Below are positions 45,001 through 48,000 of a stretch of DNA of 64,000 bases, piece after piece (position 1 is the stretch's first letter; each line of letters opens with the position of its first letter). The position numbers are program-made. Source of the DNA: a plasmid; sequence record NZ_CP102478.1; one strand, written 5' to 3'.

Positions 45001-48000
45001 AGCCGGTGGAAAAATCCTGGAAGAGCCCGTTTGGCTTTTTTCCCGTCATTTCTGGCTACCCCGCAAAAGCTCGGTAGCTCGTTCCTTCGCTGAGTCACGC
45101 GCACGTCGCTCCGCGGTCATATCGCTGCGCGACACGATCTCAGTCAACAGGAACTCGCAAACAAAAATTGCTTCGACGAGTTGCGTCGGCAAATTTGCCA
45201 GCGTTGATTTCTGTCCGGTTGGCGTTCCCGTTCCAGATAGCTGCCTAGCTTCTTGCAGCAATGTATCGGCTTTCGCGATAGACGCGTCGACGGATGCGAT
45301 CAGCCGGTCGACCGACTCGGCGAGCGCGCCGCGCTCGGTGAGACGTCGGGCATATTCGGAGAATGAGACGCCGCGGGCCTGGGCGGTTTTCTTGTAAAAA
45401 CGGACAACGTCGGGGGTGTCGCGAAAACTGACGCGGCCGGTTTCGACGCGCGAGGAAGATTTTCGTGAGGTCATGAAAAACGCCTGGAATGAAAAGAGCG
45501 GGCGCTCGTGGAGTCGAGGAAAAACCTCGACTCGCGCACGAAACCGCGCTCGATTACGGCCCTCATGACTGCATTATTTTGAGCGACAGTAGCATGGCGA
45601 CGAGCGTTTCGCAATAACCCATTTATTTTCATAGTGATACTTATCGAATGTCAGACACACCCGTTCTAGCTGTCTGACAACGTGGCCCAATCATGACGGG
45701 GCGGGCGCGACATACTGGCAATGTTCGCGCTTTCCGGTCATTCGGGTGTCTGACATCGCGAGCCTTAACGCAAGCCGTTTCTCGCGATACGTGGCGGCGT
45801 TTTCTCGACAGGTCGACGGTGGCTGTCTGACGCTGCAAACCGCTACCGTCAGTGGTCGAGCGGGAATTTTCTATTCCTCTGGAGTCCGAATTATATTCTC
45901 CGATTCCGAATTTGTCTGACACCGGAGGATATGACGTACAAGGGGTCGCGCTTGATCCCTGCCTCGCTTTTTTCGCCTATTTTCGTAGGTGTCTGACGCC
46001 GAAGGCACCGCGCCATACGGCGCGACACACCGCAACAACGTTGCATGGTGTGTGACGATCGTCTTAGGGGGCGGGGATTCCCCCGCTTCCTAAGACGATC
46101 GTAGCCAACTTCACTTCAGGTTTGGGCCGGTCGCGGAGCCTTCACCCGGTAAGGTACGGCGGTTCCCGCTCAAGGGAATCGGCGTAATCGGGGAAAAAGC
46201 GACGGCGTGGTTTGGATCGTGAGCGGTGGATTTTCGCCATCTTCACCTCGGAGCGGAGCGGAGCTGTTCAGTGCAACGTCGGAAGGAAGAAGGGAGGTGG
46301 AGGCAGCAGGGAATATACAGGTTCGGGGACGGCGGTAGTGTGGGCAGGACAGTAGCAGAAGGTGACGCGGTGGTGGACCGGTGAGCATTGTCCACATATC
46401 CACGGTGCCGGACCAACGGCCGTGATCGATAAAGATCACGGAGCCGGTCGCCGCGCGGTGTTGTCCACACGTCAGTGTGTGGCAACACCGGTGTGAGCGC
46501 GGGGCGCGGTGGATCTGTGGTCAATGCGGCGTCGGGAAATTTTTGGGCGTGTGCAGACGGTCGGTGTGCCGCTCGACGTCGGTGTCGGGCGGGGAGTCGA
46601 AGATTTGCGGAATGCATGCATTCCGCAAACACGTGTGACTTTCCCGCGCGCCGGATTTTCACCTAACAGAGGCAGGTGGGAATTCGGCGCGCGCCTTGTG
46701 TCGCTGGGCCGCGTCCGGATTGCGGGCCAGCGGAATAATTCGGACGCGCAGCAGCGCGGCCGAACTGGACGAAATTCGCGCGATCCACATGTCCACGGCG
46801 TCGTACGCCCGGCCGTGATCGATACGGATCACAGAGCCGGGCGCCGCGCGGTGTTGTCCACACGGTAGTGTGCGGCAACACCGGATTGAGCGCGGGGCGC
46901 GGTGCACATGTGGATCGCGCGGGACATCGAGCGCGCACGACGGATTGGGCGCTCGATCGGATTTGCCCGCTTGCGGGCAACTGGAAACTGTTCCGGGCTA
47001 TCGCGTGGTGGTGGCATGCCGGTACAATGCGCGGCGAGGGCCGATACCACGAAACGGAGAATCGTGAAATGAGTGAGCTATCGGAAAAGACCACGCGGAA
47101 GCCGCGATCGATCGAAGATGAGATCGCGAGGGCGGCAGCGAAGCTGAAAAAGCTGCAGGACGAACAGCGCGAACGGCTCCGCAAGGATCGCGAGCGGAAT
47201 CAGAAGGCGGTACTCGAGCTGCTGCGCGCGGAAGGGCTGGACGAGATCCCGGCGGAACAGTGGAAAGAGCGGCTCGAGGCTGTAAAAGCGGCACTCGCCA
47301 AACCGGGCGAGACACCGGCGCCGGAAAAACCCGCCCAGGCCGAACCGCAGCCTGCTGTCGCCGACGGCGCGTCGGTGTGATCGTTGGGGCAATCCGGCGA
47401 AGCGCGAAGTATGCGCGGAGCGGGATTGCCCCGATTCATTTGCGCAACGCGCAAACTGGATAACGCATTGGTCGCGGGCTGGCGGGTGGTCGCGGCGTAG
47501 CGGCGAGCGCCCGCCAGCCCGCGACGCCGCGCAAAAAATCCCGATTCAGGCGTGCTCGTGTGCGGTCGCCGTCATGGTGAGGCCGAGCGCGCGCACCACC
47601 GGCAGGAGCGTCCAGAATTCCGGGATTCCGGCTACTGGCCGCAGGGCCGGCGACGCGATCCGTGTTCGCCGGCCCTGTGGCCTAGTAGCCGAGCCAGTCG
47701 AGCACCTCTTTCCCTTCGTATTCTTCGCGGTCGCCGACGTCTGCCAGAAACTCGGAAAAATCCACGAAGTGCTTTTTGATCTCGGCCTCGGCTTCGGCGC
47801 GCGTCACGGTCATCTCGCACGCTTCGAAGTAGGAATATGCGGTCATCGGTTCATCCTCGCAATTGGATCGTCACGGGTGCTCACGGCAGGTAACGGGACC
47901 AGTCGCCAACGTGCAGGGTTGAAAGCCAGAAATCGTATGCGCCACTGTCGTATGCGTCGGTCAGTTCCGCGATTCGCGAGAAACGCGGCGTATGGAGAAA

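Follow-up and report, generated by a model that had tools for sequence, protein, structure and literature searches.

Six short repeats in the transfer origin of a Burkholderia plasmid as probable binding sites of the ribbon-helix-helix protein PtwA

Results

In a 64-kb stretch of plasmid sequence from the Burkholderia cepacia complex (record NZ_CP102478.1; hereafter "the window", with all coordinates given as window positions), six near-identical copies of a short repeat, TGTCTGAC(R), are located in the arm of the origin of transfer (oriT) between the gene ptwA and a set of hairpins at the predicted nicking site (nic). Sequence comparisons make it likely that these six sites are bound by PtwA, a ribbon-helix-helix accessory protein whose gene comes first in the adjacent relaxase operon (gene order ptwA-ptwB-ptwC), and that they serve both in the relaxosome and as operators. 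The sites are strongly enriched as compared to the rest of the window, are conserved in position among related plasmids, lie inside a functional oriT and co-vary with the N-terminal domain of PtwA. Over this region the window is 94% identical to the B. pyrrocinia plasmid p2327.

The repeat array

The first-pass annotation of the window had reported six near-identical motifs at 45649-45998, and a motif search of the window found exactly those six. They are listed below together with a possible seventh, decayed site; the invariance of core columns refers to an alignment of five plasmids, i.e., the window, p2327, a B. cenocepacia plasmid, pBTU and pRF23 (76% mean column identity).

Site 1, 45649-45657, minus strand: TGTCTGACA, which reads TGTCAGACA on the plus strand; paired with site 2 in inverted orientation, at a centre-to-centre distance of 22 bp; pBTU and pRF23 have a degenerate version (TGTCATACA)
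Site 2, 45671-45679, plus strand: TGTCTGACA; core columns invariant 8/8
Site 3, 45747-45755, plus strand: TGTCTGACA; core columns invariant 5/8; degenerate in pBTU and pRF23
Possible decayed inverted partner of site 4, 45802-45810, strand not assigned: TTCTCGACA; 5/9 matches; centre 22 bp before site 4
Site 4, 45824-45832, plus strand: TGTCTGACG; core columns invariant 8/8
Site 5, 45913-45921, plus strand: TGTCTGACA, preceded by TT to give TTGTCTGA; core columns invariant 7/8; the longer stretch that contains it is AATTTGTCTGACA
Site 6, 45990-45998, plus strand: TGTCTGACG; core columns invariant 8/8

The sites share the form (T)GTCTGAC, with the 8-mer TGTCTGAC as their invariant core; start-to-start distances across the six are 22, 76, 77, 89 and 77 bp, and relative to the ATG that opens the minus-strand operon (at 45474), the array is located 175-525 bp upstream. 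The core was not similarly frequent throughout the window; six copies were found within 365 bp as compared to a single copy in the remaining 63.6 kb (at 22359, within a long open reading frame [ORF]). The number expected under a first-order Markov model is 0.009 per 365 bp (Poisson P < 1e-13); for the (T)GTCTGAC form, 0.01-0.05 sites would be expected. Moreover, when all 8-mers of the window were considered, TGTCTGAC was the only one, apart from simple GC-rich sequences, with six copies within 365 bp.

The possibility that the array is protein-coding (ORFs at 45641-45922 on the minus strand and 45746-45919 on the plus strand) was considered and rejected, as these ORFs showed no Pfam matches, relatives differ by indels of 7-8 bp, and conservation is confined to 8-bp islands. 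In the five-plasmid alignment, 42 of the 48 core columns (88%) are invariant, as compared to 59 of the 312 columns between the cores (19%; P = 1e-20, Fisher's exact test). Despite the 7-8-bp indels between sites, site positions relative to the conserved block downstream vary by only 1-6 bp, and the core of site 6 starts 41-43 bp ahead of the conserved nic core in all close relatives. Three relatives (L002, L003 and L004) carry a full inverted site at the position of 45802-45810, centred at -226 to -228 relative to the nic core; the window sequence at this position is thus possibly the remnant of an inverted site that these relatives keep.

Location within the published Ptw oriT

The genes ptwA, ptwB and ptwC were described on the Ptw plasmid of B. 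cenocepacia K56-2 by Fernandez-Gonzalez et al. (2016; PMC4853378), who reported ptwA as a 429-bp ORF for a predicted ribbon-helix-helix accessory protein, named it after TrwA, and found that a 700-bp fragment upstream of ptwA is mobilisable and functions as an oriT. The four cloning primers of that study match the window with 0 mismatches, at 45046-45065, 45475-45494, 46164-46181 and 46385-46405; the primer pair for pEF033 is located at 45475-45494 and 46164-46181, and a pEF034 primer matches ptwA. The pEF033 pair delimits the following feature.

Functional "Ptw-oriT (700 bp)" fragment (pEF033), 45475-46181, strand not assigned: exact match of both primers

As the primers match exactly, the whole array is located within the experimentally functional 700-bp oriT. 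Figure 1B of the published study marks direct repeats ("a set of DRs of 15 bp with three mismatches"), and its authors found no nic-like sequence in the Ptw oriT (PMC4853378). The DNA is the same as that analyzed here; the TGTCTGAC core, its six copies, their spacing and the binder are left undefined in PMC4853378.

Conserved hairpin block and predicted nic region

Directly after site 6, the block at 45998-46112 can form three consecutive single-stranded DNA hairpins (z = -10.3), and 75% of its columns are invariant in the five-plasmid alignment. Two features were distinguished within it.

Conserved oriT core, 46025-46056, plus strand: ACACACC-GCAAC-AAC-GTTGC-AT-GGTGTGTGAC; hairpin, then the predicted nic region for the relaxase
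GC-rich hairpin with 22-bp arms, 46055-46102, plus strand: directly after the nic core

The outer stem of the hairpin is altered on both arms in pBTU and pRF23 (GATCG...CGATC to GAGCT...AGCTC; alignment read by eye). The pattern GCAAC-N3-GTTGC-R-TGGTGTGTGAC was found in all 25 related loci; it was seen in each of the distant relatives compared and, beyond these, in 15 contigs of other betaproteobacterial origin (Burkholderia, Aromatoleum, Curvibacter, Candidatus Glomeribacter and metagenome-assembled genomes), and it is located upstream of a ptwA-like gene wherever the contig reaches far enough. The hairpin and GGTGTGTGAC core does not vary among the 25 loci, and in the window it begins 42 bp from the first base of the site 6 core. 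As MOBF relaxases recognise a hairpin with a single-stranded tail (PMC2943615) and the geometry matches that of plasmid R388, 46045-46056 is likely to be the nic region; by further analogy with R388, our guess is that the nick would fall between 46051 and 46052, within GGTGT|GTGAC (46047-46056, plus strand).

As a separate observation, site 5 (45911-45918) reads TTGTCTGA, and its first six bases are those 5' of the R388 nic (TTGTCT/AT, a sequence confirmed in NC_028464, in which we take the slash to mark the nic position). This likeness is a possible reason for the low-level, TrwC-dependent mobilisation reported for the Ptw oriT, for which the authors of that study had no explanation (PMC4853378).

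Co-variation of the repeats with PtwA

Among the 25 loci with the same nic core, each clade has its own repeat between the nic core and ptwA, and the repeat tracks the predicted beta-ribbon of PtwA (10 ribbon types), as in the following pairs.

Ribbon RVSFR, repeat TGTCTGAC: window, p2327, toggle3, pBTU, pRF23 and SRS-46 contig 15
Ribbon RTTVR, repeat TGTCCGACGCGAA
Ribbons RVTIR, RITIR and RITLR, repeat GGTGTCTGCC
Ribbon RFNIR, repeat TTCGGTGTCGCC
Ribbon PITLR, repeat CTTCGGTGTATGC
Ribbons PISFK and PWSIK, repeat AGGYGTMNTACC

Two of these loci, pBTU (L003) and contig 9 of Burkholderia sp. SRS-46 (L013), show 91% identity in PtwB and 92% in the relaxase domain of PtwC. Their PtwA proteins are 83% identical over the C-terminal 50 residues, as compared to 47% over the N-terminal 58 residues, and their DNA is 90-98% identical outside, but only 30-50% identical within, the region from -850 to 0 relative to the nic core. 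This divergent block (window equivalent approx. 45180-46030) extends over the array in full, the promoter region and approx. 95 codons at the start of ptwA. The L013 array consists of six TGTCCGAC sites at -417, -338, -262, -196, -119 and -42 (spacings of 79, 76, 66, 77 and 77 bp), and TGTCCGAC differs from TGTCTGAC only at the central base. Judged from these identity profiles, the difference between L003 and L013 is a natural recombination cassette swap, and the repeat follows the DNA-binding domain of PtwA rather than PtwB or the relaxase. Both types of specificity are present in SRS-46 on separate contigs, namely L013 and L011, the latter with a window-type array.

These comparisons also bear on three other explanations for the repeats. 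One is that the sites are bound by another sequence-specific protein, e.g., a host or plasmid regulator of the GntR/FadR type that ties the transfer genes or the oriT to host physiology. GntR/FadR-type operators resemble GTC-N-GAC palindromes, the near-palindrome TGTC-T-GACA is the type of target bound by helix-turn-helix dimers, and a single reader of GTC-N-GAC could tolerate both TGTCTGAC and TGTCCGAC, which differ at the central base; moreover, we only infer that PtwA is the binder. Conversely, sister plasmids of the same species carry unrelated repeats at equivalent positions (e.g., AGGYGTMNTACC in B. cenocepacia HI2424), so that a host-factor model needs a separate factor for each plasmid. 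In addition, the repeat changes with the PtwA ribbon and is constant when the ribbon is constant, the exchanged cassette comprises only the N-terminal part of PtwA and non-coding DNA, and no enrichment of the motif was seen outside the array in the 64 kb. Overall, we consider a different binder of this kind unlikely.

Another explanation is that the repeats are secondary recognition or loading sites of the relaxase PtwC, given their likeness to the nic core: GGTGTCTGAC is one base off GGTGTGTGAC, the nic core contains a one-mismatch match (TGTGTGAC) at +17, and most clade-specific repeats contain GGTGT or TGTC, as does the nic core. However, L003 and L013 have different repeats even though their relaxase domains are 92% identical and their nic cores near-identical (96% DNA identity), whereas the window and L003 share the same repeat with relaxases that are only 76% identical. 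As the repeats also have no adjacent hairpin, unlike MOBF substrates (PMC2943615), a role as relaxase sites seems highly improbable.

The first-pass annotation had proposed that the motifs might be operators of the ribbon-helix-helix protein (gene at 45046-45474) or accessory sites of the oriT or, as alternatives, iterons or sites for a ParB-like protein. The former proposal has good support from the location within the published oriT and the co-variation with the N-terminal domain. The latter would make the array a set of vegetative replication iterons, or centromere sites for the ParB-like protein encoded approx. 4 kb away (50113-52323); that the array is made of short repeated sites, with DnaA-box-like sequences approx. 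400 bp off (46391-46490), would fit such a role. However, plasmids with the same oriT architecture differ in replicon type (replicon clusters 465/9, 1467, 523, 105, 382, 1864 and 1509), the flanks of four close relatives carry no annotated rep gene, and a core of 8-9 bp at a spacing of approx. 77 bp contrasts with the 17-22 bp of iterons repeated at approx. 22 bp. Likewise, the HI2424 plasmid, in which PtwA is only 32% identical and the oriT region lacks GTCTGAC, has a ParB-like protein with 95% identity to that of the window, but this identity is only 65-75% for pRF23 and pBTU, which have the TGTCTGAC array. The ParB-like protein was thus rejected as the binder, as its sequence does not track the array type, and we regard the iteron or centromere explanation as extremely improbable.

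Helical phasing of the sites

Relative to the start of the nic core, the centres of the six window sites are at -379, -357, -281, -204, -115 and -38. Distances from the last site (77, 166, 243, 319 and 341 bp) correspond to 7.0, 15.1, 22.1, 29.0 and 31.0 turns at 11.0 bp per turn. The Rayleigh R of the window array is 0.96 at 11.0 bp as compared to 0.26 at 10.5 bp, and the independent L013 array shows the same preference (0.95 as compared to 0.19). After a scan of periods from 10 to 11.5 bp, the phasing remained significant for both (P = 0.004 for the window and P = 0.011 for L013). The sites therefore fall on one face of the DNA only at a helical repeat of approx. 11.0-11.1 bp, not at the 10.5 bp of relaxed B-DNA; a repeat of 11.0-11.1 bp is the value reported for looping of supercoiled DNA in vivo. 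The same-face arrangement claimed by the first-pass annotation hence holds at approx. 11.0 bp per turn, whereas at 10.5 bp per turn the spacings of 76-89 bp are not whole turns.

Many sites have an inverted partner, full or decayed, 22 bp upstream; two subsites separated by two turns may therefore form the basic unit, an arrangement that would suit a dimer of dimers. The period of approx. 77 bp is restricted to the window clade and L013; spacings in other clades are about 20-68 bp (HI2424 clade) or 90-177 bp (L010/L012 clade), and compact relatives such as Acidovorax pAOVO01 have two repeats only, at a distance of 22 bp. A scan for the IHF consensus found one site with 1 mismatch (45615-45627) and none between the repeats; we thus make no claim of IHF-assisted looping.

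Promoters upstream of ptwA

A promoter for ptwA was identified by eye between the array and the gene.

Candidate ptwA promoter, 45586-45614, minus strand: -35 TTGCGA (45609-45614), 17-bp spacer and extended -10 TGcTACTGT (hexamer 45586-45591)

The TG of the extended -10 lies just beyond 45586-45614. The TTGC and TGnTA..GT bases of this candidate are invariant in the five-plasmid alignment, and the promoter is absent from the output of the promoter scanner. A hairpin, AGTCGAGGAAAAACCTCGACT, is located at 45500-45545, between the candidate promoter and the start codon, and is near-invariant in the five plasmids; it may represent a structure in the 5' untranslated region or a further operator. 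An Rfam scan of 45300-47300 found nothing near threshold.

The repeats could also be mainly promoter elements, with TGTCAGACA or CTGACA (minus strand) serving as -35 boxes for several ptwABC promoters and with no dedicated binder. Two promoter-like matches fit this explanation, i.e., CAGACA-17-TATAAT (45918-45890, 10/12 matches), with site 5 as its -35, and CTGACA-18-GAAAAT (45654-45625), with site 1 as its -35. Only these 2 of the 6 sites have a -10 partner, however, and sigma-70-like promoters overlapping site 1 or 5 occur in the window but not in L003 or L013, which keep the sites; site 5 was accordingly dropped as the -35 of a conserved promoter. An invariant 8-bp core with 11-bp phasing over 350 bp would also be unexpected for -35 boxes, and we consider it very unlikely that the repeats act mainly in this way.

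PtwA fold and family

As compared to a cut-off of 27 bits for the Pfam NikA-like family PF21983, PtwA of the window scored 17 bits (E = 0.0065, residues 12-56), whereas syntenic homologues scored 33.0, 31.9 and 29.3 bits; the homologues that score are tied to the window PtwA by tblastn (E = 1e-4 to 1e-5). The PF21983 match covers the ribbon and two helices, and homologues also touch the FitA-like and CopG ribbon-helix-helix families. An AlphaFold2 model from an 8-sequence alignment (predicted local distance difference test [pLDDT] score of 60) has a disordered N-terminus and helices at residues 21-33, 38-79, 97-115 and 121-141. This model is compatible with, but no proof of, a ribbon-helix-helix domain that requires a partner and is followed by a helical C-terminal domain. 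Only 12 close homologues of PtwA were found in a large protein database. BLASTP produced no alignment between PtwA and TrwA at E <= 100, and PMC4853378 likewise describes the identity of the two proteins as not significant.

Neighbouring genes and sequences

The operon next to the array comprises the following genes.

ptwA, 45046-45474, minus strand: 142-residue NikA-like ribbon-helix-helix accessory protein, with the ribbon GRVSFRD at residues 13-19; the proposed binder of the sites
ptwB, 43130-45049, minus strand: TrwB/TraD-type coupling protein (PF10412, TrwB_AAD_bind, E = 3e-115)
DsbD_N-like protein gene, 42696-43133, minus strand: Pfam match
ptwC, 39711-42530, minus strand: MOBF (TrwC-type) relaxase-helicase (PF08751, E = 5e-86)

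Counterparts of ptwC in relatives are annotated as mobF. A gene for a DsbD N-terminal domain between the coupling-protein and relaxase genes, an unusual passenger of a DNA transfer and replication (Dtr) operon, is also present in Burkholderia relatives and in Acidovorax pAOVO01. The approx. 1.6 kb that separate the operon from the next gene are annotated as non-coding in four related plasmids. The ParB-like protein (736 residues, gene at 50113-52323) was matched (tblastn, E <= 1e-20) in at least 5000 plasmid records, most of them from enterobacterial conjugative plasmids; among the matches listed, nearly all were below 60% identity and 844 covered at least 80% of the protein.

The presumed leading region contains a module of approx. 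130 nt twice (46391-46520 and 46784-46913; 85% identity, 393 bp apart). This module holds DnaA-box-like sequences (TTGTCCACATATCCACGG; GTGTTGTCCACACG...GTGTGGCAACAC), and its plus strand can form a long compound hairpin as single-stranded DNA (-48 kcal/mol, z = -5.8). Related GTTTTCCACA hairpins are found at the equivalent place in HI2424, B. gladioli, B. glumae and Acidovorax plasmids, and after transfer the module may serve for priming on the single strand or act as a single-stranded-DNA promoter. In HI2424-type and B. gladioli plasmids (L005 and L006), a GC-rich repeat with a period of approx. 170 bp, in which GCGGCCGCC and ACCGTCGCG recur, lies beyond the DnaA-box module, 1000-1800 bp upstream of ptwA.

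Discussion

We propose that each 9-bp near-palindrome (TGTC-T-GACA) would take one PtwA dimer through the beta-ribbon GRVSFRD, and that the helical C-terminal half of PtwA would link dimers into higher oligomers, as for TrwA and TraM. As the spacings are multiples of 11 bp (22, 77 and 88), the sites would share one face of underwound DNA, and this shared face would allow bound PtwA to bridge or bend the approx. 350-bp arm into one compact complex. Such a complex would end at site 6, 42 bp (core start) before the hairpin and nic core, and thus beside the relaxase substrate. It would promote extrusion of the hairpin as well as opening and nicking by PtwC, and would be presented to the coupling protein PtwB for hand-over. 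PtwA on the promoter-proximal sites 1 and 2 probably also modulates transcription of ptwABC, which would provide feedback.

A bolder possibility, which we put forward tentatively and consider rather unlikely as a whole, is that of a phased scaffold, in which PtwA oligomers placed every approx. 77 bp (seven 11-bp turns) would wrap or stack the approx. 350 bp of oriT into a nucleosome-like or solenoid complex that focuses unwinding on the nic hairpins, with the PtwA domain and the array forming an exchangeable specificity cassette. If this were true, co-resident plasmids with near-identical relaxases and nic sites, such as L011 and L013 of SRS-46, could keep their relaxosomes separate.

Several points weigh against PtwA as the binder or against parts of the proposed mechanism. 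The assignment of PtwA was drawn from sequence comparisons, the window PtwA falls 10 bits short of the Pfam cut-off, its monomer model is poor and its ribbon-helix-helix fold is only predicted; a profile search of PDB with the PtwA alignment gave noise only (E > 0.6). Ribbon-helix-helix proteins such as Arc, MetJ and omega normally need adjacent subsites, and lone subsites 77 bp apart are unusual for this class. As the array and the 5' half of ptwA adjoin, one recombination event moves both, and physical linkage could thus partly account for the joint inheritance of the array and the PtwA domain. The regulatory part of the model is weak, since the promoters that overlap site 1 or 5 are confined to the window. 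Finally, the 700-bp oriT was not mobilised at a clearly higher rate by TrwC when ptwA was added (1.3e-7 as compared to 7.9e-8; PMC4853378), in an assay that used a foreign relaxase (TrwC).

The function of the Ptw oriT (reported in 2016) and the binding of oriT repeats by ribbon-helix-helix accessory proteins were already known, and as the latter principle is well established, the advance made here is incremental. What is added here is the precise position of the sites together with a likely binder, a likely nic core, a specificity cassette that can be exchanged, phasing at 11 bp and the co-variation across plasmids. The coordinates supplied cover six proposed PtwA sites, a nic region at approx. 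46045-46056 and a cassette of domain plus sites that would set specificity. In this plasmid family, the specificity of the accessory factor seems to diversify by cassette exchange while relaxase and nic stay fixed, and such cassettes bear on predicting which plasmids mobilise each other. The Ptw plasmid, moreover, affects interactions of B. cenocepacia with plants and human cells.

Comparison with known systems

The closest parallel in layout is provided by the TrwA sites sbaA and sbaB of the IncW plasmid R388. In both systems, a small ribbon-helix-helix gene is first in an operon of the trwA-trwB-trwC type, the oriT adjoins it on the upstream side and has its nic hairpin (predicted in the window) on the other strand, and gene order and strand layout match; R388 also has direct and inverted GTAGTG repeats between trwA and nic. 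TrwA represses its operon and stimulates nicking (PMC3264647). The systems differ in that the motifs are unrelated and PtwA has no detectable sequence similarity to TrwA; moreover, approx. 156 bp with two binding regions separate trwA from nic in R388, as compared to approx. 577 bp with six or seven sites at approx. 77-bp intervals between ptwA and the predicted nic in the window.

In F-like plasmids, TraM has a ribbon-helix-helix domain at its N-terminus and, at its C-terminus, a tetramerisation domain for contact with the coupling protein; it binds several sites over approx. 200 bp between nic and its own promoter, autoregulates, and is allele-specific among related plasmids. The TraM sites sbmA, sbmB and sbmC are clusters of closely spaced GANTC-type subsites, whereas the window has single 9-mers approx. 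seven turns apart. The mating-pair genes here are likewise of F-type (MOB-suite typing). A Pfam scan of PtwA proteins gave no TraM or TraY match, and no dedicated search for TraM homology was made.

NikA of R64 gives its name to PF21983, the only protein family matched by PtwA and its homologues, although the window PtwA itself stays below the cut-off. NikA binds one 17-bp repeat next to nic and bends DNA, and it works with a MOBP relaxase, whereas a MOBF relaxase and a six-site array are found here. By analogy, the mechanism proposed for PtwA would parallel that of TrwA and also those of TraM, TraY and NikA.

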